Assembly: GCF_018398935.1 (NCBI RefSeq)
Contig: NZ_CP074694.1
Location: 4,740,001-4,772,000, forward strand
Length of the DNA stretch: 32,000 bases
Direction: 5' to 3'
DNA from: Telmatocola sphagniphila
GTDB lineage: Bacteria; Planctomycetota; Planctomycetia; Gemmatales; Gemmataceae
Shown here: piece by piece, positions 6,181-29,357 of the stretch
How the letters are laid out: every line of letters starts with the position of its first letter
How positions within the stretch are numbered: position 1 is the stretch's first letter
The notes under the pieces: model-generated
What the model was told of the DNA's origin: nothing
Database searches by the model: none
The model's input: the letters and a program-made list of their open reading frames with translations, nothing else
Made by a program: the position numbers and the translations under genes

Positions 6181-9100
6181 TTACTTCGTAAACCGGTCCT
6201 GCAGCGCGCAGACCGTCAGCTCTTTCTGCCGGAGCGCTCGACAGGCTTCCACCGCCGCCTGAGCCGCGGCCATCGTTGTGATGCAAGTCACGCGCTGAGC
6301 CACCGCACTCGAACGAATCTTCCCTTCATCGGTACGCCGGCCTTTACCACTCGGTGTATTCAGAATCATGGCGATCTCGCCATTCTTCATCTTGTCCAGC
6401 AGATTGGGCCGGCCTTCCTGAATCTTCAATACTTCCTGAACGGTGATACCTTCATTCCGCAGGAACTTGGCAGTACCGCGTGTTGCCAGTAACTGGTAGC
6501 CCAGATCGGCCAGATCCTTGGCAATCGGAATCATCTCCTGCTTGTCCCGATCGTTGACCGAGATGAAGATGGTCCCCTTGGCCGGTAGCGGAGAATTCGC
6601 GGCCAGCTGCGACTTGTAAAAGGCCATCGGGAAAGAATCGTCGATGCCCATCACTTCACCGGTCGAGCGCATTTCCGGGCCGAGGATAATATCCACTCCC
6701 GGGAATTTGTTGAACGGGAAGACCGATTCCTTGACCGAGTAGTGCTTGGGCACCACCTCATCGGCCACATTCAACTCATCCAGGGTCATACCCGCCATAA
6801 CCAGCGCGGCCAGCCGGGCGAGAGGTACGCCGATGGCTTTCGACACGAACGGAATGGTTCGCGAAGCTCGCGGATTGGCTTCCAGAATGTAGATTTCCGG
6901 GGCCGGTCCCCAGGTGTTCGCAATCGCGAACTGAATGTTCATCAAGCCCTTCACCTTCAAGGCGCTGGTCAGCACCCGGGCCTGACGTTTGATCTCGTCG
7001 ATCACCGCCATCGAGAGACTGTGCGGCGGCAGCACGCAGGCTGAATCGCCCGAGTGAATCCCGGCTTCTTCAATGTGCTGCATTACGCCGCCGATAACAA
7101 CGCGTTTGCCATCACTGAGGCAATCGACGTCCACTTCCACGGCGTCTTCGAGGAATTTATCGATCAGGATCGGCTTGCCGGGCGAAGCTTCCATCGCCTT
7201 CTTCACGTAACGTTCCAACGAGCTTTCATCGTGGACGATTTCCATGGCCCGGCCGCCGAGCACGAAGCTGGGCCGGACCAGAACCGGGAAGCCAATCTTG
7301 CGCGAAGTATGCAGAGCACCCTGATAATCGAGCGAGGTACTGCTGGGCGGTTGCTTCAACTTCAATTCGTCGATCAGTTTGCTGAAGAGTTCCCGGTCCT
7401 CCGCCATGTCGATGCTTTCGACGCTGGTCCCGATGATCGGCACACCTTGAGCTTTCAGAGCCTTGGCTAGATTCAACGGCGTCTGACCGCCAAATTGCAC
7501 AATCACACCAGCCGGTTGCATGCGGTCGCAGATGTTCATCACATCCTCGGCCGTCAGCGGTTCGAAGAACAGATGATCGGAAGTATCGTAATCGGTACTG
7601 ACGGTTTCCGGGTTCGAGTTGACCATGATGGTTTCGAAGCCCGCTTTGCGTAACGCCACCACTGCTTGAACGCAGCAGTAATCGAACTCGATCCCCTGGC
7701 CGATACGGTTGGGGCCGCCACCGAGAATCATGATTCGCTTTTTGCCGCTGGTCGGACGAATTTCGTCCTCGAGTTCCATCGAAAACGTTCCATCCGGCAT
7801 CCGGACCAGAAAAGGCGTTTCGTACGTGGAGTAGTAGTAGGGAGTGAACGCTTCGAACTCCGCGGCACAGGTATCAACCAGTTTGAAAACTGCCTTCACA
7901 CCAAAGGTTTTGCGGAGTTTGCGGACTTCGGTTTCGGAAGTTTCCCAGAGGTTGGCCAGTTGCCGGTCGATGAAACCCATCTGCTTGGCTTCCAGCATCA
8001 AAGCCGGGGTGACATCTTGGAGCTTGGTGTTGCGAATCACATCTTCGTATTTCACCAGTTCTTCGATTTGGCGAAGGAACCACGGATCGATGTGAGTGCG
8101 GGCATGGATATCCTCGACGCTCAGTCCGGACTTCAAACCGTAGCGAATGAACCAGATGCGTTCGGCATTCGGTTTCGCCAGCTTGTTATTGATTTCTTCC
8201 ATCGTCGGCTGGTCGGGGGTGCCCCAGCGGTCGAGACGGTCGCAGCCGAGACCGAAGCGGGAAACTTCGAGGCCGCGCAAGGCTTTTTGCAGCGATTCCT
8301 TGAAAGTCCGACCGATGGCCATGGTCTCGCCGACCGATTTCATCTGAGTCGTGAGTGTCGGGTCGGCATCGGGGAATTTTTCGAAATTGAAGCGGGGGAC
8401 CTTGGTCACCACATAATCGATAGTCGGCTCGAAGCTGGCCGGGGTATCGCGGGTGATATCGTTTTTCAATTCATCGAGCGTGAAGCCGACGGCCAGCTTG
8501 GCGGCTATCTTGGCGATCGGGAAGCCGGTGGCCTTGGAGGCCAGAGCGCTCGAGCGGCTGACGCGCGGATTCATTTCGATAACGATCATCCGGCCGGTGG
8601 CCGGGTTGACGGCGAATTGAATGTTGGAACCGCCCGTTTCCACGCCGATTTCGCGAATGATGGCCTTGGCCGCATCGCGCATCCGCTGATATTCCTTGTC
8701 CGAAAGCGTCTGAATCGGGGCAACGGTGATGCTGTCGCCGGTGTGCACACCCATCGGATCTAGGTTTTCGATGGAGCAAATGATAATGACGTTATCGGCC
8801 TTATCGCGCACGACTTCGAGTTCGAATTCCTTCCAGCCGATGATGCTTTCTTCGATGAGCACTTCGCCGACCGGGCTCAGTTCCAAGCCCAGGGTGAGCA
8901 TGGAAATGAATTCTTCGCGGTTGTAAGCGATGCCGCCGCCGGTGCCTCCCATAGTGAAGCTGGGGCGCAGCACGCAGGGCAGTCCGATGGTTTCGACGAT
9001 TTTATTTCCCTCGGCGAGGCTCTTGGCCACGCCCGATTGGGGAACATCCAAACCGATTTTAAGAATGGCTTCCTTGAATTTGAAGCGATCCTCGGCCTTG

Positions 9101-9480
9101 TCGATAACGTCGGCTTTGGCGCCGATCATTTCGACGTTGTATTTTTCCAGAACGCCATGTTTGTACAGGTCCATGGCGGTGTTCAGACCGGTTTGACCAC
9201 CGAGGGTCGGGAGAAGCGCATCGGGCCGCTCTTTGGCGATGATTTTTTCCACTACCTGCCAGGTAATTGGCTCGATGTAGGTGCGATCCGCCGTATCCGG
9301 ATCGGTCATGATCGTGGCCGGGTTCGAATTAACGAGTACGACCTCGTACCCTTCTTCGCGGAGGGCCTTGCAGGCCTGGGTGCCAGAATAATCGAATTCA
9401 CAGGCCTGACCGATGATGATGGGACCGGAACCAATTAGCAGGATTTTCTTGATGTCTGTACGTTTCGGCATGGTGCTCAA
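6181..9480 (-). CDS. carB: Carbamoyl-phosphate synthase large subunit
   Basis: 1099 aa. Canonical N-terminus [57 protein letters not shown]. The ATP-grasp halves are duplicated (second half [20 protein letters not shown]). A C-terminal MGS-like allosteric domain is present. Confidence 0.97.
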
Positions 9481-9624
9481 AGTAGAGATTTCGAATCGAA
9501 ACTCGAATCATCTTACGGAGTCGGGCAAAATCTGTCTTGGAGTGTTTTGACGAATCGGCCTAAACGTCAACTATCGAAGAAAAAAACTGGCTTTTATACC
9601 GCCGGGCGAGCTCCCCGAGTGCCA

Positions 9625-10257
9625 TTATTCCGCTGAAGCAGAGTTTGTAGAACCATGGAGCGCCTTGGCAATCAATTCATCGAAATACGCAGGGCGACGT
9701 AGGGGAATGACGACCATCACGAGACCGAATACGAAAAAGGCCATACCGACGAGTTTTGTGATCATTCCTGCGTAAGGGAAGGTTGGCAGCTTACCGGTGA
9801 TGTTGCCATCGCGAAGGATAAGGCTGGCAATCAAAACGCCGCTTCCCAAAATCATTAGCACGCTGCCCAAGACAACACTTAGTCTAGGATGAATGTGCGA
9901 CCAGGGGACATGAACCATATCGTGCGCCGTAGCCTTCGCAGTTTCCAAATCGACGCCACCGCTGATCAAAAGTTGGGTCGCTTCGTTTGCGTTCAACCCG
10001 GCGGCCACTTTTTTGGCTGTTTCCGAAAGTAATATTTCCCGCCGGGCCTTCTGAAGAATCCAGTCGACATTTTCGGGACGCATCTTCTCGGCAAGCAGAC
10101 GTTCTTTTATTTGTTCGGAGTTGGCTGAAGATTTCAGAGCATCCTGAGCCAAGTTCATAATCCGTTTGACTTTACGACCGTTCTGCCAAAAAGCAAAACC
10201 AATAAGACTGAGGATTCCCAAACCACCGCAAATGGATATCGCCGGTAAGTATTCCAT
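9625..10257 (-). CDS. Hypothetical integral membrane protein
   Basis: 210 aa. One N-terminal and two C-terminal hydrophobic helices flank a charged helical middle region. I recognised no family. Confidence 0.6.
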   Translation of the reverse strand: MEYLPAISICGGLGILSLIGFAFWQNGRKVKRIMNLAQDALKSSANSEQIKERLLAEKMRPENVDWILQKARREILLSETAKKVAAGLNANEATQLLISGGVDLETAKATAHDMVHVPWSHIHPRLSVVLGSVLMILGSGVLIASLILRDGNITGKLPTFPYAGMITKLVGMAFFVFGLVMVVIPLRRPAYFDELIAKALHGSTNSASAE

Positions 10258-10391
10258 GGGGCAACCTGACGCATTGGGCTAAGAAAAATTTTGTGGATGA
10301 TCGCCTGTTAAAAAACACATCGCGATTGGCATATTTATATGAACTTTTTCTTATCTTTTGAAGCTCCCCTGCTTTTGAATCACCAATTTCT

Positions 10392-10790
10392 CCCCGGGTA
10401 GACCGAAACGGTCAACCCGAGGCTCACCCCTCGCTTTGCCCTCCGGGAAAAGAAAATATTGTGCTGTGTACCATGCCCGGAGCTTCGAGCCCCGGGTAGA
10501 CCGAAACGGTCAACCCGGGACTCACCCCTCTCTTTGCCCTCCGGGAAAAGAAAATTTTGTCGTGTATACCATGCCCGGAGGGCAGGCAGATATTAGACCC
10601 AGGTTGCTCGCTTCGAGCCCCGGGTAGACCGAAACGGTCAACCCGAGGCTCACCCCTCTCTTTGCCCTCCGGGAAAAGAAAATTTTGTGCTGTATACCAT
10701 GCCCGGAGGGCATGCAGATATTAGACCCGGGTTGCTCGCTTCGAGCTACCCGGGGATTGAATATCCAGGTTGACCGTTTCGATCAACCCA
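10392..10790. repeat. Tandem array (3 copies plus one degenerate inverted end) of a composite palindromic repeat, REP/BIME- or MITE-like
   Basis: Units start at 10392, 10490 and 10618, giving periods of 98 and 128 bp. The first copy lacks a 30-nt internal segment. Each unit has the hairpin cccgggtagacc-gaaac-ggtcaacccg(a/g)g and a 10-bp stem gccctccggg/cccggagggc around an AT-rich 28-nt loop. A degenerate inverted copy (ggttgaccgtttcgatcaaccc) lies at 10768-10790. Confidence 0.9.
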
Positions 10791-10925
10791 TGGGAATCGC
10801 CTCCCCCCCTTTTTCAAAATTCTTTGACTACGCACTTGGGCAAACTCGAGAACCTCAAGTAAAGTATACGCATGTACACTACTTGATTGGTGTACGAGTG
10901 GAACAACGATGCGACCCTTCCTGCG

Positions 10926-10970
10926 CCGGGCGGGGGACGAAACGTCTAGGGAGCCCACGCCCCCGCCCGG
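10926..10970 (+). promoter_or_regulatory. Very stable GC-only hairpin upstream of the portal gene
   Basis: ccgggcggggg (10926-10936) pairs perfectly with cccccgcccgg (10960-10970) over 11 bp, with a 23-nt loop. It sits 66 nt upstream of the portal ATG and is followed by T-rich sequence. A second 6-bp hairpin, gtacac...gtgtac, lies at about 10874-10895. Confidence 0.5.
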
Positions 10971-11036
10971 TCCTGTCTCATTCGGTTTGTGAAGCGATTT
11001 TTAGCCCCTGGCGGAATTTCCTTTTCGAGGTGCGGT

Positions 11037-12251
11037 ATGGCTTTTTCCTGGTTACGCAAAGCGCTGGGGCCCAAGGCCTCCCGATTACGGATCGGCTCGC
11101 TTTGGAGCACGCCCACCCCAAACGCCGGCTGGTGGCGCGACGATCCGACCGAGCAGCTACGGCAGTATCAATCCTGGGTCTATGCCGCCGTGAATGCGAT
11201 TGCTCAGGAAATCGGTCGGCAACGCCCCTACTGCTACCGCAACTGGGGACAGGCCGAGCACGAGCAGACACCCCTGGTGGCAAATCATCCGCTGGTTCAA
11301 CTGCTGGAACATCCCAATCCGAAGATGACCCCCTGGGAACTCTGGTACCTGACGGTGCTTTATCTGGAGTTGACGGGCAACTGCTACTGGCATGTGGCCA
11401 GTCGCGGCGATGGACTACCCGGCGAACTTTGGATCATTCCCACTCACTGGATTCGCATTGTCACCCATACATCGGTTTATGCTTATGCGTATGAATTGCG
11501 CGTACCTGGCGCACCGGCCGAGTATTTCAGCCCGGAAGAGATTATTCATCTGAAATATCCCAATCCGTTGGATGTCTATTACGGCTTGTCGCCGTTGCAG
11601 GCGAACGCGCTCACGATAGATGCCAATGCCGAATTGCAGCGCAGCCGGTGGCAGACCTTTCAGGCCGGTCAACGGCCCGGAATGGTTTTGCAGACCGATC
11701 AAACCTTAAACGATGCCACGGTCGTACGACTGGAAGAGAAACTGCAATCCAAATTCTCCGGCCGGGAAAACTGGCAACGACCGCTGGTGCTTGAGCAAGG
11801 GTTGAAAGCCAGTCCCTGGACCTTCACCCCCGCCGAGATGGACTATTTGAACTCCTGTCGGCTGACGCGCGATGAAATTTTCGCACTCTTTCGAGTGCCG
11901 CCGCCGGTGGCCGGGATGATCGAGACGGTGGGCCTGGGCGCGGATATCTGGCACGGGGCGAGGACGATCTTCTGCGAAGGAACGATTCAACCGAAGCTCG
12001 ATTTGATTGCTCAGGCATTGACCCGAGATCTGGCCCGGCGCTTCGATGCCGATCTGGTGATCGCGTTTCCGGATTGTTCGCCGCGCAATCAGGATCAACG
12101 TCGGCTGGACGATGAACTCGATGCTCGGCTCGGTCTACGAACCGTGAATGAAATCCGCCGGGCGCGCGGCCTGAAACCCTTCAGCGATGGCAAATTCGAC
12201 CAGCCGCGGTGTTTGGGTCACGTCGCGGAACGGCCATCATTGGGAAATTGA
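11037..12251 (+). CDS. Phage portal protein, HK97 family
   Basis: About 404 aa from ATG 11037, which is preceded by GAGGTG. The ORF opens at 10989. Typical portal segments are WVYAAVNAIAQEI and LLEHPNPKMTPWELWYLTVLYLELTGNCYWHV. Confidence 0.9.
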   Translation: MAFSWLRKALGPKASRLRIGSLWSTPTPNAGWWRDDPTEQLRQYQSWVYAAVNAIAQEIGRQRPYCYRNWGQAEHEQTPLVANHPLVQLLEHPNPKMTPWELWYLTVLYLELTGNCYWHVASRGDGLPGELWIIPTHWIRIVTHTSVYAYAYELRVPGAPAEYFSPEEIIHLKYPNPLDVYYGLSPLQANALTIDANAELQRSRWQTFQAGQRPGMVLQTDQTLNDATVVRLEEKLQSKFSGRENWQRPLVLEQGLKASPWTFTPAEMDYLNSCRLTRDEIFALFRVPPPVAGMIETVGLGADIWHGARTIFCEGTIQPKLDLIAQALTRDLARRFDADLVIAFPDCSPRNQDQRRLDDELDARLGLRTVNEIRRARGLKPFSDGKFDQPRCLGHVAERPSLGN

Positions 12252-12279
12252 ATCGAAAGCATTCCAAAGGAACACATCC

Positions 12280-12816
12280 ATGAAATTGCATATGTCTGTG
12301 GACGCGACTCCATTATCCATTGATACCGAAAATCACACGGTGCGATCCGTGATTAGTACATCGCAAGTCGACCGGCGCGGCGATGTCATCCTGCCCGCCG
12401 GTTTGAGTAACGCGGCCGAGTATTTGAAGAACCCCGTCGTTCTCTGGGCGCATCAGCGGAACGTACCGCCGATTGGTACCTGCACCAAACTCGAAGTGCT
12501 ACCCGATCAAATCGTTGCGGAAACGCAGTTTTCTCAGGCCACACCGCTCGCACGCGATTTGTTTCGACTCTACGCCGAAGGGACGCTGCGTGGCTGGTCG
12601 ATCGGCTTCGTTCCGAAAAGTGCCCGACCGCGACGACGGCAGCGTGAGGAACCCGCCGGGCTGTTTTTCGATTCCTGGGAACTGCTCGAATATAGTGCGG
12701 TGCCGATCCCGGATAATCCTCAGGCCCTGACGCTGGCGATTCAGAAAGGTCAGATCGAGGATTCCCACTTGATCGATTACCTGCGCCGGGATGTTCTCGG
12801 CGGGCTGTTGAAATAA
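12280..12816 (+). CDS. HK97-family prohead maturation protease (S78/U35-like)
   Basis: About 178 aa from ATG 12280; the ORF opens at 12187 and would overlap the portal gene. Family-like segments are VISTSQVDRRGDVILPAGL, PVVLWAHQRNVPPIG and LRGWSIGFVP. Its position immediately after the portal gene fits. Confidence 0.85.
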   Translation: MKLHMSVDATPLSIDTENHTVRSVISTSQVDRRGDVILPAGLSNAAEYLKNPVVLWAHQRNVPPIGTCTKLEVLPDQIVAETQFSQATPLARDLFRLYAEGTLRGWSIGFVPKSARPRRRQREEPAGLFFDSWELLEYSAVPIPDNPQALTLAIQKGQIEDSHLIDYLRRDVLGGLLK

Positions 12817-12873
12817 CGGCTCTTACCTTCCCTTAACCGAATTTTTTGTGCCCTTTCTCCTGGAGATATTTTC

Positions 12874-14262
12874 ATGACGACGACTGAAACGACTTCCACT
12901 ACCATCCCCAACGACCGCTTTCAAACTCGCGATGAGCTTGTGCAGTTCATCGAACAGAAAACCAGCGATGCGATCGAAAAAAGCCGGGTCGACCGCCGGG
13001 TGCCCTGGGCGACCAGTGGCCCGGTCGGCCGGGATTCCGACGGCTACAGTGTTCTGAAGGCGGCCGCCTACGCCCTGGGTTATATCGGGGCGGATCAGGC
13101 TAAAGAAGAGATTCACACGCATCAACAGTTGCGCGATCTCTATTCCACTTATGGGTTCGTACCGCACTGCGGCGCGCAATCTTTCCTGATCCCCCTCTCG
13201 ACCAATCATCTGCCGGCTTTCGAAAGCCGCGGCGCGAAACTGCGCGATGAGATCCGCTGCAAAATGACGGCCCAGGCCGATAAGTTCGATCCGGATGAGG
13301 CCCGCTGGCTGAACCGTCGCCTGAACCTTCAGACTAAATCGCTGGGAACCATCACCGATACCGCCGGCGGAACGCTGGTCCGTTATCCCGTGCTCGGCGA
13401 GATCATCGATCTGCAGCGGAATCTGGAAGTCTTTTCGATGGCCGGGGCCCAGGAAATCGCCCTGCCTCCCAACGGCCGCATTCAATTTCCCAAACTCACC
13501 GGGGGCAGCACGGCTTACTGGGTCGGCGAAGCGACTGCGATCACCGAAAGCCAACCGACCACCGGTAACCTCGATCTGCAAGCCAAGAAACTCGGCGTAC
13601 TGGTGAAGGTAAACAACGAATTGTTGCGCTTTGCCAGTCCTTCCGCGGAAGGCCTGATCCGCTACGATATGGCCCGCAGTGTGGCGCTGAAGGCCGATCT
13701 GTCGATGCTGGAAGGCAACGGCAGCACGCAGATTAAAGGGCTGCTGACGTACGGTGGCATCACCCAGCACACCGCCAGCACACTAGGAACCAACGGCAAT
13801 ACCTTCGAGCCGCAGGATGTGGCCCTGATGGAAGGAAAGCTGCCCGATGCCGTCGGCGCCCCAACGGCCTGGCTGATGCGAAAAAATATGTTCGCGGCCC
13901 TGATGAACCGGCGGGCGGATGCCGTGAACGCCAACGATGGGAAAGGGCCTTTCCTGTTCCATCCCATGCGGAGTGCGGCCGATGCTCCGCCGAGCGAGAT
14001 CTACGGCACCCGAGTGGTTCGCTCCTCGCAGGTCAGTACTACCCGCACCAAGGGTTCCGGTTCCAATCTTACCTATGTCCTGTTGGGGTACTTCCCCGAT
14101 TGGGTCATCGCCCGCATGGGAGTGATGGAGTTCATGGCCAGCGGTTTGGGAGATTCTGCCCTGACCAACGATCAGACTTATCTGCGCGGCATCCAGCATA
14201 TCGATGCCGGCCCTCGAAACATCAGCAGCTTCGTACTCTGCGACCAACTGGTCGCGGCCTGA
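12874..14262 (+). CDS. Phage major capsid protein, HK97 family, with long N-terminal (delta/scaffold-like) extension
   Basis: 462 aa, with GGAG 8 nt upstream of the ATG. Characteristic stretch: STAYWVGEATAITESQPTTGNLDLQAKKLGVLVKVNNELLRFASPSAEGLIRYDMARSVALKADLSMLEGNGSTQIKGLL. No separate scaffold gene is present. Confidence 0.9.
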   Translation: MTTTETTSTTIPNDRFQTRDELVQFIEQKTSDAIEKSRVDRRVPWATSGPVGRDSDGYSVLKAAAYALGYIGADQAKEEIHTHQQLRDLYSTYGFVPHCGAQSFLIPLSTNHLPAFESRGAKLRDEIRCKMTAQADKFDPDEARWLNRRLNLQTKSLGTITDTAGGTLVRYPVLGEIIDLQRNLEVFSMAGAQEIALPPNGRIQFPKLTGGSTAYWVGEATAITESQPTTGNLDLQAKKLGVLVKVNNELLRFASPSAEGLIRYDMARSVALKADLSMLEGNGSTQIKGLLTYGGITQHTASTLGTNGNTFEPQDVALMEGKLPDAVGAPTAWLMRKNMFAALMNRRADAVNANDGKGPFLFHPMRSAADAPPSEIYGTRVVRSSQVSTTRTKGSGSNLTYVLLGYFPDWVIARMGVMEFMASGLGDSALTNDQTYLRGIQHIDAGPRNISSFVLCDQLVAA

Positions 14263-14342
14263 TCGCCCGCGCGGGTGGGACGAAGGATCTTTCCCGCCCG
14301 CGTTTTTCTCATTTTTTACTGATGTCTCCTTCGGAGTTTTCC

Positions 14343-14717
14343 ATGTCCACCTTACTTCACGATGTCGCCAGCGCCGTCGCCCTGCAATCGGTCGTTCAGG
14401 CCAATTCTCTATCGGAAGACGGATCGACCATCGTTGATATGATCGATTCCGATGGAGCCTGTTTCGCGATTCAATCCATCGGCCAGCTCAGCAGCAGTGC
14501 GTTTCTGGGTAAGTTTCAGGAGTCGTCCGACAGGATCAATTGGACCGACATCCCCGGCGGTTCATTCGAACCGGTCAAAGGGTTAAACAGTCTGCAAATC
14601 ATCTCGTTCGTGCGCTCGCAGCGTTATCTGCGCTACCAGTATATCTTCGAAGATGGCGATCTTGCCAGTTGCTTCGGCAGCGTCGTGCTAGCCACTCAGA
14701 AAAAATTAGTTCCCTGA
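14343..14717 (+). CDS. Hypothetical protein between capsid and connector genes
   Basis: About 124 aa from ATG 14343 (GGAG 7 nt upstream); an alternative ATG is at 14322. I recognised no family. It is co-oriented within the head module. Confidence 0.5.
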   Translation: MSTLLHDVASAVALQSVVQANSLSEDGSTIVDMIDSDGACFAIQSIGQLSSSAFLGKFQESSDRINWTDIPGGSFEPVKGLNSLQIISFVRSQRYLRYQYIFEDGDLASCFGSVVLATQKKLVP

Positions 14718-14748
14718 ATTCGCCCGATTTCACAGCGGAGATTGGATC

Positions 14749-15363
14749 ATGGCACTCGATACACTGGCGAACATCAAAGCGCGGCTGGGGATCTCCGGTA
14801 GCGAGGATGATAGTTTGCTCGGCAAAATTCAATCTTCCGCGGAAGCATTGATCGCCGAGCATACCGGTCGAAAATTCGAAGGGGGAACCTTCACCGAAGA
14901 TTTCTCGGCCGCGCTGCGTTCTGTGCAGCTGAAAAATTATCCGGTGGCAAACCTGAATGTCTACGTCGATAATCTCGGCGAGTTCGGCCTGCAAACTGAA
15001 ATCCCCGCGATCGCCTATAAGGTGGATGCCGTCCGGGGTATCGTCAGGTCGTTGTGCGGACCTTTCTACCAGACCCGCTTTTACACGGCCTTTCAGGAAC
15101 TTCGACCGGTCTGGGAAAGCTTTCCAGGCATGGTCCGGGTCATCTACACCGTCAGTGCACCGGTACCGCAGCAGATCCAGGAAGCTTTAGCTCTCCTGGT
15201 CGGTTTCTCTTATCGGAAAGTGAAGACGAATCAGGCGTCCAATCAGCGAAATATTCTGCAGGAACGGGTAGGCGATTCATTCGTGATGTTCGAGAGCAAT
15301 AAAGACGATTCGTATCGGCAAGCGCTCGATCTTTTGGAACCGTTTCGGCAGCCCAGTCTTTGA
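14749..15363 (+). CDS. Head-tail connector protein, gp6-like (long form)
   Basis: 204 aa, with GGAG upstream. The N-terminus MALDTLANIKARLGISGSEDDSLLGKIQSSAEALIAEHTGRKF and the C-terminal ...ALDLLEPFRQ match the usual pattern of gp6-like (SPP1 gp15 / HK97 gp6 type) connector proteins. Confidence 0.65.
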   Translation: MALDTLANIKARLGISGSEDDSLLGKIQSSAEALIAEHTGRKFEGGTFTEDFSAALRSVQLKNYPVANLNVYVDNLGEFGLQTEIPAIAYKVDAVRGIVRSLCGPFYQTRFYTAFQELRPVWESFPGMVRVIYTVSAPVPQQIQEALALLVGFSYRKVKTNQASNQRNILQERVGDSFVMFESNKDDSYRQALDLLEPFRQPSL

Positions 15364-15382
15364 AAAGTCCCCGAGAGTCAAC

Positions 15383-15727
15383 ATGAGTACCGCACCGATT
15401 CCCATTCCGTATCCCGAGACCACGGCCATCTATCGCCCCTTCGGTTCGCCTACACCGATCGCTACAGAGATCTCCGGCCACTTGATCGCCGATAGTTCCG
15501 GTCTGAATTCGACACGGACACTGAAATGGACTCACATTCTGGAAACGGCTTCTTCCACGGATCTACGCGATGGTTGCTCGCGGACGGCGGGAACCAATGC
15601 GATCGTGTACGCCGATGGCGATGAAGTTCGCATGGGCGGCAATAGATTTGTCGTCGTCTGGGTGGAAATCGTAAACCCCGGAAGTTCCTTCGAGCGGAAA
15701 CGGGCCTATCTGATGCGCCATTCCTGA
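15383..15727 (+). CDS. Putative head-closure / head-tail adaptor protein
   Basis: 114 aa. The call rests on position after the gp6-like gene and on C-terminal beta-rich sequence (DGDEVRMGGNRFVVVWVEIVNPG...RAYLMR) that resembles head-closure proteins. It is tentative. Confidence 0.4.
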   Translation: MSTAPIPIPYPETTAIYRPFGSPTPIATEISGHLIADSSGLNSTRTLKWTHILETASSTDLRDGCSRTAGTNAIVYADGDEVRMGGNRFVVVWVEIVNPGSSFERKRAYLMRHS

Positions 15728-15776
15728 AAGATTGACTAACGCTTCTTCTTCAACATTTCCCGGCCTTTGCACCATC

Positions 15777-16292
15777 ATGCGCCAGCGAAAAAACTCGCGA
15801 ACGAGCGTTCAGCGACTTCTGACTCGGCTGGCCGGCTATCGAGCCCGCGGGCTGAGTTGGAAGACTTGCACCAGCAAGTTGGGAGAGACCAGAAAACATC
15901 TGGATGAACTGATCTATGCTCACCCGGGATTATGGAGTCGTGCCCTGACGCTGGCATTGAAAGATTCAGCCGCCGAGTTCCGCCTCGAATGCATTTCCTG
16001 GATGCGCCGACAGCTGCGGGAGCAGGATGCCAAAACCGCGATTGCCAGTGCAAAGGTACTCATCTCTCTACTCAATCCGCTATGGAAAGAGGGCCAATCT
16101 CCGGAGAGGGAGGGGCTGGACCCGCTACAAATTTTCGCCCGCGGTTTACTGAGGTGCCCCGATGAACAGCTCGAAGCGCTCGCGGCAGAACTCACTGCGA
16201 AAATGGCATCTGATTCAACAGGAAAAGAATCGACGTCAGGCTCGTCAGGATCCCAATGCATTTCTGGAACTGGTTCTCAGTCAGCCGGATAA
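15777..16292 (+). CDS. Small HTH-like protein; small terminase subunit candidate by position only
   Basis: About 171 aa from ATG 15777; the ORF opens with TTG at 15732. It has a basic N-terminus and an HTH-like segment (RARGLSWKTCTSKLGETRKHLDELI). Its 3' end overlaps the TerL ORF by 131 nt in another frame. Confidence 0.35.
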   Translation: MRQRKNSRTSVQRLLTRLAGYRARGLSWKTCTSKLGETRKHLDELIYAHPGLWSRALTLALKDSAAEFRLECISWMRRQLREQDAKTAIASAKVLISLLNPLWKEGQSPEREGLDPLQIFARGLLRCPDEQLEALAAELTAKMASDSTGKESTSGSSGSQCISGTGSQSAG

Positions 16293-17547
16293 ACCATTCC
16301 GGCAGGCGATGATTCACAAAGAATTGCAGGATTTCCTGACTCGGAATCCGCGGGCGCTCATCGAATTGCCGCGCGATCACGGCAAGAGTACGCAGGTCTG
16401 CGCCCGCGTTCTCTGGGAGTTGGGAAGGCAGCCGAATCTGCGCATCGTCCTGGTGTGCGGCAACGAAAAGATTGCCCTGGAACGAAGCGGGTTTATCCGC
16501 CAGCAACTGCAAACTAATCCCTGGCTGTTTCCTCTGTTTCCTCACTTGCGGCCTGGCCGGCCCTGGGGTACGAAATGCTTTCACATAGCGGGGCAGCGCG
16601 CTCGCATTGGCCCGAGTGTTACGGCTCTCGGTATCGGGGCCGGGTCCACCGGTGTGCGCGCCGATCTGCTCATCTGCGATGACATCGTCGATGTGAAATC
16701 GCTTTACAGTGCTCGCGAACGGCGGCGCGTCGAAAGTTACTTTCGCGAAAACCTGATGAACTTGCTCGAACCGCAGGGCCGGCTCTGGAATCTGTTCACG
16801 CCCTGGCATCAGGACGATTTGAACGCTCGCTTGAAAGCCAGTTCCGCGTACGCGCATTTTCGACGGGCGATCGATGAAGATTTGACACCGCTGTGGCCGG
16901 AGCACTGGCCCAGAGAACGGCTGCTCCAACGCCGACGCGAGATCGGGACGATTCCGTTTGCCCGAGCCTATCATCTGAAACCGCTGGTGGAAGCGGACAC
17001 CTTGATACTGCTGAAATGGATCCGTTTTCGCGAGCGGGACAAGAGTTATTCCAAAATCGTTCTCGCCATCGACCCGGCCATCAGCACGACGGCCCAGGCC
17101 GATTGCAGCGCATTAGTCGTGCTCGGTTTGCGCGACAATCGGGAAATGGATTGTCTGGAAGCGCTCGGCCGAAGAATTCGCCCACCCGAACTGATCGAAC
17201 TGATTCGCCAGTTCGATGCACTTTGGAAGCCGGATGCGATTCTTTTTGAGCAGAATGGGGCGTTCCGCGCCGTGTTTGAGATGCTGCAAAGCCAGGCAGG
17301 TTTCGCGGGTCGATTAATCGGCATCACGCAGTCCGTCAGCAAGCTGGCACGAGTGCAGGCGTTCAGTGTTTTGGTGGAAACCGGCCGATTCTATCTGAGA
17401 GGTCAGAACAACGAGGTATCGCCGGAGCAAAAACCGTTGTTCGATGAAATGATTTCCTTCCCGCTCGGCGATCACGATGACCTTCTGGATGCCGCCGCGA
17501 TGGCCGCGCAATGGCTGAGTACGAAAACCGAGTTGCGCGTCTGGTAA
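16162..17547 (+). CDS. Phage terminase large subunit
   Basis: 461 aa; ATG 16162 is preceded by GAGGTG. Walker A is PRDHGKST and Walker B is DLLICDDIVD. Nuclease-domain acidic motifs are IVLAIDPA and GDHDDLLDAAAMA. Confidence 0.9.
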   Translation: MNSSKRSRQNSLRKWHLIQQEKNRRQARQDPNAFLELVLSQPDKPFRQAMIHKELQDFLTRNPRALIELPRDHGKSTQVCARVLWELGRQPNLRIVLVCGNEKIALERSGFIRQQLQTNPWLFPLFPHLRPGRPWGTKCFHIAGQRARIGPSVTALGIGAGSTGVRADLLICDDIVDVKSLYSARERRRVESYFRENLMNLLEPQGRLWNLFTPWHQDDLNARLKASSAYAHFRRAIDEDLTPLWPEHWPRERLLQRRREIGTIPFARAYHLKPLVEADTLILLKWIRFRERDKSYSKIVLAIDPAISTTAQADCSALVVLGLRDNREMDCLEALGRRIRPPELIELIRQFDALWKPDAILFEQNGAFRAVFEMLQSQAGFAGRLIGITQSVSKLARVQAFSVLVETGRFYLRGQNNEVSPEQKPLFDEMISFPLGDHDDLLDAAAMAAQWLSTKTELRVW

Positions 17548-17581
17548 TACTTTTCTATTTTCACTTTTCGGGATCGCCCGC

Positions 17582-18769
17582 ATGATCTCCATTCGATTTC
17601 CTTTCTTACCGCAGCGCCGTTCACTCTGGTCTAATCAGGTCTGCGATCTGTTCGGCCTCTCGGACGAAGAACCCCCAATAACGGTTGCGGAAAATTTTTC
17701 GCTCGATTTGCAGCCGGGACAAATTGCCTTGTTTCATGGCCCTTCCGGCAGCGGGAAATCTTCGTTGTTGCGAACCTTGGGACAATCCTGGAACGCACGA
17801 GACGCCCAGCAGATTTTGCTGCCGGACATTCCTCTGATCGATGCGCTGGAAGGTTCACTGGAAAAACGTCTGGGTGAACTATCCGCATGCGGCCTCGGCG
17901 AAGCCCGCTTGATGCTGCGCACGCCGAGCGAGTTGTCGGAGGGTCAACGCTTTCGATTCCGCCTAGCGTACGCGATGTCTCTATCGCAAACCGTGATGGT
18001 GGATGAATTCTCGGCGGTTCTCGATCGCACTCTGGCGAAAGTTGTGGCTTATAATCTGCGCAAGCAAGTCCAACGCTGGAAGGGCCGGCTACTACTGGCC
18101 ACTAGCCACGAGGACGTTCTCGAAGATTTGCAGCCGGATGTACGAGTGGAATGTCGAGGCGACGGCGATATTCGGATTTTTCGCTCGGAAAACCGAGTTT
18201 CCAAGCCGATATCCTTTGCCGATGAATTGAAAATTCGAGAAGGAACGCTGGCGGATTGGAAATATTTCGCGCGCTGGCATTATCGAAGCCGTACAGTTGC
18301 GTTCGTCCGCCGGGTGGTCGTGCTGGAGCATCTCCATCAGCCGATCGGCATTTGCATCTTCTGCTGCCCGGCGGCCTCCCTGACTCTGCGCACCCGCTAT
18401 TTCGGACTGCAACGTCCGCAATCTCCCCGGATGATGCAACGCATGAACAAGTCTTTATGGGTATTATCGCGAGTAGTTTTGCACCCGACTTATCGAGGGG
18501 CGGGCATCGCGGCCCGGTTTATTGCCGAAGCTTGCGATAGTTGCCCGGTGGAGTGGATCGAAACTCTTTCGGCTATGGGTCGAGTGAATCCGGTTTTCGA
18601 AAAGGCGGGATTTCAAAAAATCGGCTTGATTCGACGGAATGGCAAGCGACCGAGCCGGGCGTACAAAAATCGCAAGAGCAACAAAAATCCGAATGAGGAT
18701 CGACAAAACCAATTCAGCGAACCGGTTTACTTCATTCGGAAAACTTTTCGCGGCCCGACGTGGGGTTAA
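17582..18769 (+). CDS. ABC-type ATPase domain fused to C-terminal GNAT-like acetyltransferase domain (COG2401-like architecture)
   Basis: 395 aa. Walker A GPSGSGKSS, ABC signature LSEGQRFR, Walker B VMVDEFSAVLD and H-loop LLLATSHE are present. The C-terminal half has a GNAT motif-A-like RVVLHPTYRGAGIAARFI and a terminal FEKAGFQKIG. The gene starts 34 nt after TerL. Confidence 0.75.
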   Translation: MISIRFPFLPQRRSLWSNQVCDLFGLSDEEPPITVAENFSLDLQPGQIALFHGPSGSGKSSLLRTLGQSWNARDAQQILLPDIPLIDALEGSLEKRLGELSACGLGEARLMLRTPSELSEGQRFRFRLAYAMSLSQTVMVDEFSAVLDRTLAKVVAYNLRKQVQRWKGRLLLATSHEDVLEDLQPDVRVECRGDGDIRIFRSENRVSKPISFADELKIREGTLADWKYFARWHYRSRTVAFVRRVVVLEHLHQPIGICIFCCPAASLTLRTRYFGLQRPQSPRMMQRMNKSLWVLSRVVLHPTYRGAGIAARFIAEACDSCPVEWIETLSAMGRVNPVFEKAGFQKIGLIRRNGKRPSRAYKNRKSNKNPNEDRQNQFSEPVYFIRKTFRGPTWG

Positions 18770-19215
18770 TCGACGGATGAGTCTTTATCTTTGGATGGTT
18801 CGCCAGGATTTACGCTCGTCGGTTGTTCCGCTTTACGTTCGCGAAGGACTACTCCGGTAATTGCATCTATCAGCAATTCCGGTCCATTCGCCACCGCCTG
18901 GATGCGCAGAACTTTTCGGCCTTCGACGATTTCTTCCCGCACCAGATGCAAAAGTTCGGAGCCGGGAAACGAAGGTTCATCGATCGCCCGTTGGGAAGGC
19001 AATTCCCGCACTTGGGTCAGTAGCGGGATCTCTGGAAGTAGCGGCTGCTTAGCGCTTTCTACAAAGGACTGCGCTCCCTCATGCGGATGTCGGGTGAGCA
19101 GCACAAAGACACTTAATAGACCGACTGCCCCTATTGTCGCAACCCAAGGTCGACTGAGGCAATGTATCAGCGCTTCCCAGTGCTTGCTCGTGGGGCGAAT
19201 CCTATTCATGACCAT
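18766..19215 (-). CDS. Small membrane-anchored protein, PepSY-like C-terminal domain (tentative)
   Basis: About 149 aa from ATG 19215; the ORF opens with TTG at 19233. It has one TM helix (WVATIGAVGLLSVFVLL). The C-terminal VLRIQAVANGPELLIDAITGVVLRE resembles PepSY. Its stop codon overlaps the stop of the ABC/GNAT gene (18766-18769). Confidence 0.5.
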   Translation of the reverse strand: MVMNRIRPTSKHWEALIHCLSRPWVATIGAVGLLSVFVLLTRHPHEGAQSFVESAKQPLLPEIPLLTQVRELPSQRAIDEPSFPGSELLHLVREEIVEGRKVLRIQAVANGPELLIDAITGVVLRERKAEQPTSVNPGEPSKDKDSSVD

Positions 19216-19289
19216 TCCCTTCTTATTGTGCAATCCTGCGGCCTGTTACTCATCTCAGTGAATGTAAGAATGAGTACATTGAGAGCGGA

Positions 19290-19336: not shown

Positions 19337-19741
19337 TTAGTCGACCGTCCGAAATTTCATCGTGGGATCTTCCATTTTTGCTTCCGTGATTAGTTCCCCC
19401 GATTTGGCATCGAGAGTGATTACGGAGTTACTGGAGCCGATGAAAATTTTGAGCACTTCCCGGCCCTGCTCCAGAATTTTCCGAACGTTGAGGGTCTTGG
19501 CATCGTCCATCGAGGACAAATTTCGATACTTTTCGATGCGTTCCTGAAGTACATCCTTGTCCAAATTGACGATGTCTGGATTCGCGACAAATTGCTTGGA
19601 GGTTGGCTTCGGAGTGGTTAGCACCAATAGGAGGCCAATTCCCACAAAAACAGCCAAGCTGAGCACCAGATTCTGCCAGCCATTCCAATTGTTAAACTTG
19701 TCCCAGAATGTCATGGCCACTTTAGGAGAGTGATTGACCAT
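19337..19741 (-). CDS. Small membrane-anchored protein, PepSY-like, paralog of 18766..19215
   Basis: 134 aa. It has one TM helix (LVLSLAVFVGIGLLLVL). The C-terminal VLKIFIGSSNSVITLDAKSGELITE parallels the neighbouring protein. GC is visibly lower than in the flanks. Confidence 0.5.
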   Translation of the reverse strand: MVNHSPKVAMTFWDKFNNWNGWQNLVLSLAVFVGIGLLLVLTTPKPTSKQFVANPDIVNLDKDVLQERIEKYRNLSSMDDAKTLNVRKILEQGREVLKIFIGSSNSVITLDAKSGELITEAKMEDPTMKFRTVD

Positions 19742-19978
19742 ACTAATCCTTCGCTATTTCAAAACAGAGTCCGGCAAAGAATGTGCATCTTAGATTGCGA
19801 GTCCGATGGCCCCATTCCCTACAAGGTATATAGCTCTCTAACACCGAATATTTCAGGGAGTTCCTGTGTCAGACAAAAATCTCACTTTTTACTCATTTCC
19901 CGGATCTTTTCGAGCAGATATCTGACGAGGGGGAAACGGGTACCTAACCGGACTGCTTCGGCGCTTTACAATTGCTGA

Positions 19979-27230: not shown

Positions 27231-27393
27231 GCCCCGGGTTTTATTTTGCCCCGGTAGGAAACCCATTTGATTGCCCCGGGTAGGAAACCCGAGGCTCGAA
27301 TCTGGAACCCCTCCGGGGTTCTAAAAATATTCATGGAAGCCCGGAGGGCTTCCAGAGAACAGACCCGGGTTGACCGCTTCGGTCTACCCGGGG
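27231..27393. repeat. Palindromic composite repeat: one full copy plus a partial copy, same superfamily as 10392-10790 but opposite orientation
   Basis: Full copy at about 27267-27393. It contains the hairpins gaacccc-tcc-ggggttc and ggaagccc-gga-gggcttcc. The terminal hairpin cccgggttgacc-gcttc-ggtctacccggg is the near reverse complement of the hairpin in the 10.4-kb array. Confidence 0.9.
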
Positions 27394-28916: not shown

Positions 28917-29357
28917 CAAATTTCATTCGTATCATTTTGCCCCGGGTAAAAAACCCGAGGCTCAGTTCTGGAACCCCTCCGGGGTTCTAAAAATATTCAT
29001 GGAAGCCCGGAGGGCTTCCAGTGGACAGACCCGGGTTGACCGCTTCGGGCTACCCGGGGGAGAAAACCAATTTCATTCGAATCCTAATGCCCCGGGTAAA
29101 AAACCCGAGGCTCAAATCTGGAAACCATCCGGGCTTCCAGACAACAGACCCGGGTTGACCGCTTCGGGCTACCCGGGGGGGAACAAATAAACCAATTTCA
29201 TTCGAATCCTAATGCCCCGGGTAAGAAACCCAGGGCTCAGTTCTGGAACCCCTCCGGGGTTCTAAAAATATTCATGGAAGCCCGGAGGGCTTCCAGAGGA
29301 CAGACCCGGGTTGACCGCTTCGGTCTACCCGGGTGTAGATTTCGGTCTACCCGGGGG
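28917..29357. repeat. Tandem array (3 copies plus a partial copy) of the palindromic composite repeat
   Basis: Units begin at about 28917, 29067 and 29192, giving periods of 150 and 125 bp. The middle copy lacks the gaacccc/ggggttc and AT-rich segment. Each ends in cccgggttgaccgcttcgg(g/t)ctacccggg. An extra half-hairpin ttcggtctacccggggg lies at 29341-29357. The array abuts the stop of the 29365..31152 gene. Confidence 0.9.

Follow-up and report, generated by a model that had tools for sequence, protein, structure and literature searches.

The chromosome of the planctomycete Telmatocola sphagniphila raises the question of why a bacterium carries the genes for a phage head, together with genes for filling it with DNA, where no further phage gene is recognised in the surrounding 32 kb. 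The stretch analysed here, called the window, comprises 32,000 nucleotides (positions 4,740,001 to 4,772,000 of contig NZ_CP074694.1), and positions given without a locus label are counted from its first letter. Nine intact genes, all on the plus strand and closely spaced, occupy 11037–18769. An initial annotation, made by reading the sequence, had described nine co-directional genes with short gaps and without frameshifts or internal stops, and the open reading frames (ORFs) agree with this. It had the module begin at 10791, which is no gene start and falls at an array of repetitive extragenic palindromic (REP)-like repeats (10384–10790); the first gene, encoding the portal, begins at 11037. 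The Shine-Dalgarno-like GAGGTG or GGAG sequences that it reported precede the portal, capsid, adaptor, and large terminase genes, but not every one of the nine starts. Its statement that the 32 kb hold no tail, lysis, integrase, or replication gene agrees with searches of Pfam and PHROGs, in which no other ORF of the window matched these families or any other phage family. The reading favoured here, and considered reasonably probable, is that the nine genes form a phage-derived head-assembly and DNA-packaging system which is fixed in the chromosomes of the Gemmataceae and maintained by selection, that is, a domesticated element of the "viriform" type. Judged from the predicted proteins, the retained set would cover all known needs for building and sealing a DNA-filled HK97-type head and would add a three-gene packaging operon.

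The head module has the composition of that of an HK97-type tailed phage. Portal, S78 protease, HK97-fold capsid protein, and gp6-like adaptor are encoded in one co-directional cluster, and all score above the Pfam gathering thresholds, while the stopper is recognised by its fold alone. The portal protein (404 amino acids [aa], QVL30931.1; 11037–12251, plus strand) matches PF04860 (1e-57) and phrog_2662 (7e-65), and its start is confirmed by an exact match to QVL30931.1; it is 62–76% identical to its Gemmataceae orthologues and 24–34% identical to the portals of related phages. Next is a prohead serine protease of the S78/HK97 gp4-like type (12187–12816, plus strand), which matches PF04586 (Peptidase_S78, 2e-9), phrog_80 (4e-24), and TIGR01543 and is 49–61% identical to its orthologues; its true start may be the ATG at 12280. 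The HK97-fold major capsid protein (462 aa, QVL30933.1; 12874–14262, plus strand) matches PF05065 (9e-31) and TIGR01554. Since the TIGR01554 alignment begins at residue 148, the protein has an N-terminal extension of about 147 aa, the size of a delta domain, and these residues are predicted to replace the HK97 delta domain as a delta-like or scaffold-like region. Downstream of the capsid gene lies the gene for a conserved head-module protein of about 131 aa (14322–14717, plus strand), recognised by its orthologues and a weak match to phrog_5707. In nearly all related loci, the gene after that for the capsid encodes an orthologue of about 124 aa (approximately 30–45% identity), and a homologue (42%) is encoded in the tailed-phage contig L018. 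The gp6-like head–tail adaptor (204 aa, QVL30935.1; 14749–15363, plus strand) matches PF05135 (4e-8), phrog_442 (2e-13), and TIGR01560, and the adaptor of the L018 phage belongs to the same PHROG.

The last head gene encodes a protein of 114 aa (KIH39_19060; 15383–15727, plus strand) that is a candidate, at the level of its fold, for the head-closure or "stopper" protein. No sequence family was matched by this protein in Pfam, PHROGs, or a sequence-profile search of PDB. Homologues numbered 190, and a Pfam run on them returned nothing; hhalign detected no similarity between the family and its positional analogue in the L018 phage. The AlphaFold model (predicted local distance difference test [pLDDT] score, 83) gave as its best Foldseek matches in PDB the T1 stopper, SPP1 gp16, PBSX XkdH, the R4C stopper, the SaPI1 neck, and a chain of RcGTA, with modest scores (best E-value 6e-3; template modelling [TM] scores of 0.43–0.53). 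These fold matches are consistent with the putative head-closure protein of the initial annotation. Profile searches likewise agree with its portal, prohead protease, capsid with a long N-terminal extension, and gp6-like connector, and what it listed as an unknown after the capsid is the 131-aa protein that relatives and related phages keep.

The packaging operon begins with a small helix-turn-helix (HTH) protein, a candidate small terminase subunit (15732–16292, plus strand; its start may be the ATG at 15777), which was recognised by family alignment and by the presence of HTH_23 in its relatives. Its gene overlaps the start of that for the large terminase subunit (TerL) by 131 nt, comparable overlaps being found in relatives (e.g., loci L096 and L103), and it is unannotated in GenBank, as follows from the consecutive tags KIH39_19060 and KIH39_19065. 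Along its length the protein aligns with a family whose genes, in most metagenomic TerL loci, directly precede or overlap that for TerL. HTH_23 was matched by 9 of 13 members of this family, with the window member itself below threshold, and a PDB sequence-profile search with the family returned designed repeat proteins only. An N-terminal HTH, as in its family, and a gene immediately 5′ of that for TerL are what would be expected of a small terminase subunit. TerL itself (461 aa, KIH39_19065, QVL30937.1; 16162–17547, plus strand) matches phrog_38 (3e-81), Terminase_6C, and NF033889 (4e-32), the last being a T7-type TerL model. The motifs PRDHGKS, LLICDD, TPW, IDPA, FEQN, and HDDLLDAA are present and conserved in homologues, and full-length homologues with 45–55% identity keep the ATPase and nuclease motifs.

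The third gene of the operon, 35 bp after TerL, encodes a fusion of an ABC-type ATPase with a GNAT-like domain (395 aa, QVL30938.1; 17582–18769, plus strand). It matches ABC_tran (3e-9), weakly Acetyltransf_7/10, and phrog_11143 (1e-35), phrog_886, and phrog_293. In its AlphaFold model (pLDDT 83), the N-terminal half matches ABC nucleotide-binding domains, and Foldseek found nothing beyond these. PADLOC identified no known defence family, the ABC protein giving generic P-loop matches only. The gene list of the initial annotation stands for eight of the nine genes, including TerL with intact Walker and nuclease motifs and the small HTH protein, which falls in the TerL-upstream, HTH_23-bearing family; the ninth gene, which it left unnamed, encodes no terminase but this fusion.

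The association of the fusion protein with terminases extends well beyond the window. Homologues about 55% identical to it are abundant in Gemmataceae, and on long contigs their genes follow, at a distance of a few kilobases, that for a full-length TerL (50% identical to the window TerL), in surroundings of respiratory and other housekeeping genes and without head genes. A metagenome scan with a TerL profile yielded 80 loci, and the HTH protein precedes TerL in most of the longer ones listed. Where at least 5 kb of downstream sequence was available, the ABC/GNAT gene follows TerL on the same strand at a distance of 41–4416 bp in 24 of 25 loci. A head gene lies near TerL in 1 of the 80, and no tail gene was found near the operon in any of them (about 10 kb of flank each). 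An antisense gene of the Uma2 family (PD-(D/E)xK-like), 51–69% identical among loci, often stands between TerL and ABC/GNAT, for example at 9382–9936 (minus strand) in L001, 9390–9941 (minus) in L002, 9408–9956 (minus) in L003, and in many of L087–L166; the 35-bp gap of the window holds no such gene.

Isolated phages encode the two parts of the fusion as separate genes, the ABC part being 35–41% and the C-terminal part 25–30% identical. Among these phages, which belong to four groups, are Salmonella SSU5, Pseudomonas hairong, Stenotrophomonas BUCTxx99, and Rhizobium RHph_Y2_11, and their operon consists of genes for two ParB-like nucleases, the ABC ATPase, a small protein, the GNAT-like protein, two further small proteins, TerL, portal, and capsid. 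The TerL proteins of these phages showed no similarity to the window TerL by tblastn. The association of ABC/GNAT with TerL thus recurs with unrelated terminases and speaks for a function in packaging. DNA modification is among the activities of GNAT-fold enzymes, Mom of phage Mu being an example.

The head genes are likewise widespread in the family. The window capsid is 100% identical to a T. sphagniphila protein, and capsid homologues are found in the hundreds at 72–78% identity under the names Gemmataceae bacterium, Gemmata, Fimbriiglobus, and Frigoriglobus, and the head-gene clade extends across Gemmataceae with capsids 66–78% and portals 62–76% identical. A genome scan with a single capsid sequence gave 10 loci, and the head core was compared over 13 longer loci and about 20 short IMG/VR contigs; the capsid contexts P0242 and P0246 were too short to inform. 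The recurrent core comprises a protein of 69–96 aa, portal, protease, capsid, the protein of about 124 aa, adaptor, and often stopper. The small first protein carries the motif EFLxAIxxYQKRxxRRYPTWxEVLxxLxxLGYRKV and precedes the portal in most Gemmataceae loci (e.g., L005 7518–7808, L006 7612–7887, and L019 7598–7807); a PDB sequence-profile search gave no match for it. At the other end, the cluster stops at the adaptor or stopper and is followed by cellular genes, such as those for sigma factors, MoxR/BatA, radical-SAM enzymes, and kinases, in 16 of the 17 other loci that include the adaptor and at least 2 kb beyond. Within about 10 kb of flank each, no tail, lysis, or integrase gene was found beside the head cluster in more than 17 loci, and no homologue of the L018 phage tail proteins in any fetched locus. 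Replication, integration, and lysogeny-control genes were found neither in the window nor in the related loci.

In most relatives, the head cluster and the HTH–TerL–ABC/GNAT operon lie at different chromosomal sites. For example, a TerL locus (L123) and a head locus (L005) both come from contigs of 1,215,991 bp and are probably on one contig of a metagenome-assembled genome (MAG), about 150–230 kb apart depending on orientation. The two units are adjacent in four cases only (the window, L042, L058, and L156). In the capsid tree, the window and L042 belong to separate sub-clades, and we infer that adjacency is ancestral and the split secondary. A head cluster nearly identical to that of the Gemmataceae MAG locus L012 (capsid 97%, stopper 99%) was also seen in a contig labelled "uncultured Alcaligenaceae" (L017, CAZFDX010000083.1), which is most likely a mis-binned planctomycete contig.

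Evidence that these genes are maintained comes from the ratio of nonsynonymous to synonymous substitution rates (dN/dS), calculated for orthologue pairs with unsaturated synonymous sites. The values were 0.01–0.04 for the portal, 0.015–0.07 for the capsid, 0.04–0.08 for the protease, 0.02 for the stopper, and 0.04–0.27 for the adaptor. Flanking genes are syntenic within the Gemmata group, and in such syntenic neighbourhoods the capsid and portal are the most conserved genes (86% and 83% between L006 and L010, versus 41–76% for the flanks). The head genes diverge in parallel with their cellular neighbours, though more slowly. The Gemmataceae-type capsids all fall into a single clade of a neighbour-joining tree, and this clade is nested within the phage capsids. 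Relatives whose capsids are at most 57% identical lie on contigs of 15–67 kb with tape-measure and tail-completion genes; these tailed-phage relatives have portals 24–34% identical and the canonical TerL–portal order. The clade-wide conservation, the low dN/dS, and the sharp break from phages lead to the rejection of random decay, and the pattern fits one ancient acquisition with vertical, constrained inheritance thereafter. Frameshifts, relaxed selection, and patchy gene content, by which a decaying remnant would be known, were not found, a few possibly damaged copies aside. The comparison of synteny and dN/dS that had been proposed as a check on the locus gave purifying selection (0.01–0.08 over portal, capsid, protease, and stopper) and no dN/dS near 1. 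Together with the single family-wide clade and the lack of tail and integrase genes in more than 17 loci, this gives good support to the initial view that the locus is domesticated and not prophage debris.

On the reading of a domesticated head and packaging system, proheads would be made by the cell under some condition. Assembly would take place on the portal with the use of the capsid's own scaffold-like domain, and the protease would mature the prohead. The HTH protein, TerL, and ABC/GNAT would load double-stranded DNA through the portal, and the adaptor and stopper would close the head, leaving it "tail-ready." Since the system lacks genes of its own for replication or integration, it would most plausibly package host DNA, like gene transfer agents; alternatively, the DNA could be that of an infecting phage. 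Tails might be encoded elsewhere, borrowed from phages, or absent, with a tail-independent fate of the particle. The head-then-terminase order of Telmatocola would represent the ancestral prophage map minus its internal tail-to-replication part, and the two halves would have been parted later by chromosomal rearrangement in most relatives. A narrower proposal, which we put forward tentatively, is that of a head-only DNA-packaging machine, a viriform class apart from gene transfer agents, with tails captured from infecting phages or delivery independent of tails, and with ABC/GNAT as a terminase accessory factor shared with SSU5-like phages. If tails are captured, this machine might, and the suggestion is just as tentative, be an immobile analogue of capsid-forming satellites that is defence-like or promotes transduction.

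Several observations weigh against domestication as a maintained system. The Gemmataceae system is described here from its genes, and its tail-less status covers linked DNA only. TerL and ABC/GNAT gave dN/dS values of 0.26–0.48, that is, weaker constraint, as calculated by the Nei–Gojobori method (NG86) only and in very GC-rich genomes. The capsid tree is a neighbour-joining tree without support values and had no species tree set beside it. The window capsid is still 54–57% identical to extant phage capsids, and gene exchange with phages is conceivable. The small pre-portal protein, when sought in the window, gave one weak and probably chance match at 19829–19945, and its gene position is filled by the REP-like array. 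In the contig of P0131, the portal is split into ORFs of 132 and 238 aa, and the MAG locus L016 (7705–11367) has frame breaks that are possibly sequencing errors; the breaks in some portal and capsid genes may be either MAG sequencing errors or real decay in some lineages. Finally, the capsid gene of one contig is interrupted by a prophage. A Gemmataceae-type capsid gene in IMG/VR 3300037479_000622 (30,264 bp) is divided between L055 2013–2735 and L058 10001–10660 by approximately 24 kb of inserted DNA, which interrupts it at about codon 245. At the beginning of the insertion is a large serine recombinase gene (L055 2662–4746, minus strand); further genes encode a TerL from another family, a tail-completion gp17 protein, and a C5 DNA methylase. 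The domesticated capsid gene thus seems to serve a real prophage as attachment site, which is reminiscent of excisable elements interrupting host genes.

The surroundings of the module in the window are those of an ordinary chromosome. G+C content is about 55% across the 32 kb, in which no compositional break, no tRNA, and no direct repeats flanking the module were found. The flanks consist of housekeeping genes: on the left, carB (6181–9480, minus strand) and a membrane-protein gene; on the right, two small membrane-protein genes, a prenyltransferase-like gene, and fmt. Rfam gave no match anywhere in the window, and a promoter and terminator scan remained at chance level. Directly downstream of the module, adjacent genes at 18766–19233 and 19337–19741 (both minus strand) encode small proteins, each with a hydrophobic N-terminal segment; they are distant paralogues (25% identity, E-value 3e-6) with no match in Pfam or PHROGs.

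The repeats upstream of the portal consist of a REP-like palindrome, CCCGGGTAGMCCGAARCGGTCAACCCGRG, of which the window holds eight intergenic copies versus none expected. Four of them form the left array (10393–10421, 10491–10519, and 10619–10647, with 10726–10754 on the minus strand), and four lie to the right, all on the minus strand (27364–27392, 29030–29058, 29149–29177, and 29305–29333). The units are partly tandem, with a length of 98–128 bp. In the copy at 10726, the inner hairpin is kept by compensatory changes (GACCG...CGGTC to GCTCG...CGAGC). Rfam had no family for the palindrome, which probably represents a genome-wide repeat family of Telmatocola. A role of the array as a packaging or attachment site was considered and rejected, as the palindrome also occurs at 27.4 and 29 kb.

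Other explanations of the locus differ in what they make of the missing tail. The module could belong to a complete gene transfer agent, with genes for tail, lysis, and regulation dispersed in the chromosome and with tailed particles that move random host DNA. Known gene transfer agents such as RcGTA use several loci, the present system is split over distant loci in most genomes, and strong purifying selection acts on the adaptor and stopper, at whose surface a tail would dock. However, no tail gene stands by the head cluster (more than 17 loci) or by the TerL operon (80 loci), and L018 tail-protein homologues were found in no fetched locus, which with about 10 kb of flank per locus is a weak negative; we regard this explanation as possible but doubtful. 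An explanation that does without tail genes is a chromosomally fixed counterpart of the capsid-forming satellites, in which filled heads take the tails of infecting siphoviruses and serve interference, host-DNA transduction, or both. The gene content equals the packaging and head module of a capsid-forming island without the tail, contemporary tailed phages exist whose capsid is 54–57% identical and whose adaptor is of the same PHROG, and the prophage integrated in the capsid gene of one contig suggests conflict between phages and the system. Such a counterpart is nevertheless rather unlikely: the integrase, replication, and regulatory genes of the islands are absent, the genes are inherited vertically, at chromosomal sites that are fixed or split, no PADLOC defence family was matched, and the portals of related phages are only 24–34% identical, which makes compatibility at the neck uncertain.

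That the shell has been re-purposed without DNA, as a protein compartment like an encapsulin, is very unlikely. HK97-fold shells have been domesticated as encapsulins, and the capsid is the most conserved gene of the set. A cargo compartment would not be expected to keep the portal, adaptor, stopper, TerL, and HTH protein under purifying selection, though, and no cargo-type enzyme is conserved beside the capsid gene. The idea of an ordinary decaying prophage remnant, or of an assembly artefact concealing the remainder of a prophage, draws on the many such loci listed as viral contigs in IMG/VR and on the copies that look damaged. It has already been largely refuted by the nine intact ORFs, by dN/dS values of 0.01–0.08 for the main head genes, by a single clade across genera with a shared end point after the stopper and shared flanks in the Gemmata group, and, as regards assembly, by the origin of the window in a 6.59-Mb contig of finished size; we consider it extremely unlikely. 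Little is left, too, of the minimal satellite that was proposed from the first reading, here taken as an active mobile element of about 8 kb which by excision and circularisation would restore the order TerS–TerL–portal. The gene order is indeed a circular permutation of the canonical one, was correctly described as such, and is seen in four lineages, and repeats are arrayed at its left edge. Nothing points to a circular element at the present day, however: the repeats are of a dispersed, REP-like kind that recurs at 27.4 and 29 kb, the searches gave neither direct repeats at the flanks nor an integrase, a tRNA, or a break in composition, the halves lie unlinked at different loci in most genomes, and the distribution is clade-wide and not sporadic. 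The chance that such an element is active here is close to negligible.

No description of this head-packaging system was found in the literature, of which the coverage was incomplete. The terminase genes of Gemmata have been remarked to resemble undescribed prophage genes (PMC5707555). In the proteome of Tuwongella immobilis, a Phage_capsid protein (GMBLW1_32700, 47.9 kDa) was detected under ordinary growth in three of three replicates of one cell fraction (PMC8567305, supplement file 3), and GMBLW1_32660–32710 include terminase, portal, and protease genes in the order TerL–portal–x–protease–capsid, flanked by hisB (PMC8567305). Because gene order and protein sizes differ, orthology to the Gemmataceae capsid could not be shown; the Tuwongella cluster could be another element or a diverged form of this one and is not counted as evidence here.

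If DNA-filled capsids form, they would add a route of gene exchange or of phage interference in Planctomycetota. Members of this phylum are abundant in soil, peat, and water, and to our knowledge their phages and gene transfer are almost unstudied. Both Telmatocola and Gemmata can be cultured, and for the latter genetic tools are available. The ABC-ATPase/GNAT protein is of interest as an uncharacterised partner of the large terminase that is common to a group of phages of about 100 kb and phage-plasmids.

Compared to the packaging region of SSU5-like, Nickievirus, and RHEph10-like phages, the Gemmataceae operon shares a homologous ABC ATPase and C-terminal domain beside TerL. In those phages, the two are separate genes upstream of TerL and are accompanied by ParB-like nucleases, whereas Gemmataceae have one fused protein downstream of TerL, without ParB genes. 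Compared to encapsulins, the likeness lies in a domesticated HK97-fold shell that is conserved in bacterial chromosomes. Encapsulins have no portal, protease, terminase, or connectors and are loaded with protein cargo, while the Gemmataceae loci keep all of these genes, so a shell without portal or terminase beside an adjacent cargo gene is not what was found.

Capsid-forming phage-inducible chromosomal islands (cf-PICIs) are closer in content, as they too have TerS-like, TerL, portal, protease, capsid, and connector genes and no tail, and a tail-less but tail-ready head is expected of both. The islands are mobile and sporadic and carry an integrase, regulators, replication genes, and att sites. 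Neither the window nor the related loci gave an integrase, AlpA or repressor, primase, or att sites, and the distribution of the Gemmataceae system is not sporadic but follows vertical inheritance through the family, usually at two chromosomal sites.

The known domesticated parts of phages are tails only (tailocins and contractile injection systems), shells only (encapsulins), and whole particles (gene transfer agents). No earlier description was found of head and terminase genes that an entire bacterial family retains without tail genes linked to them. Compared to gene transfer agents (viriforms of the RcGTA type), the Gemmataceae system has the same kind of phage-derived structural and packaging genes, fixed in the chromosome, inherited vertically, and held under purifying selection. 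Both have no replication, integration, or lysogeny genes of their own, both occupy more than one locus, and both have an HK97-type portal, protease, capsid, adaptor, and stopper, the last a candidate here. The differences are the lack of linked tail genes over about 100 related loci, the position of TerL mostly apart from the head genes, the host lineage (Planctomycetota, Gemmataceae), and a system recognised so far through its genes; we know of no ABC-ATPase/GNAT partner of TerL in gene transfer agents. As predicted from its genes, the Gemmataceae system would be like a gene transfer agent in being a host-fixed, phage-derived element, yet head-only and split in two loci.

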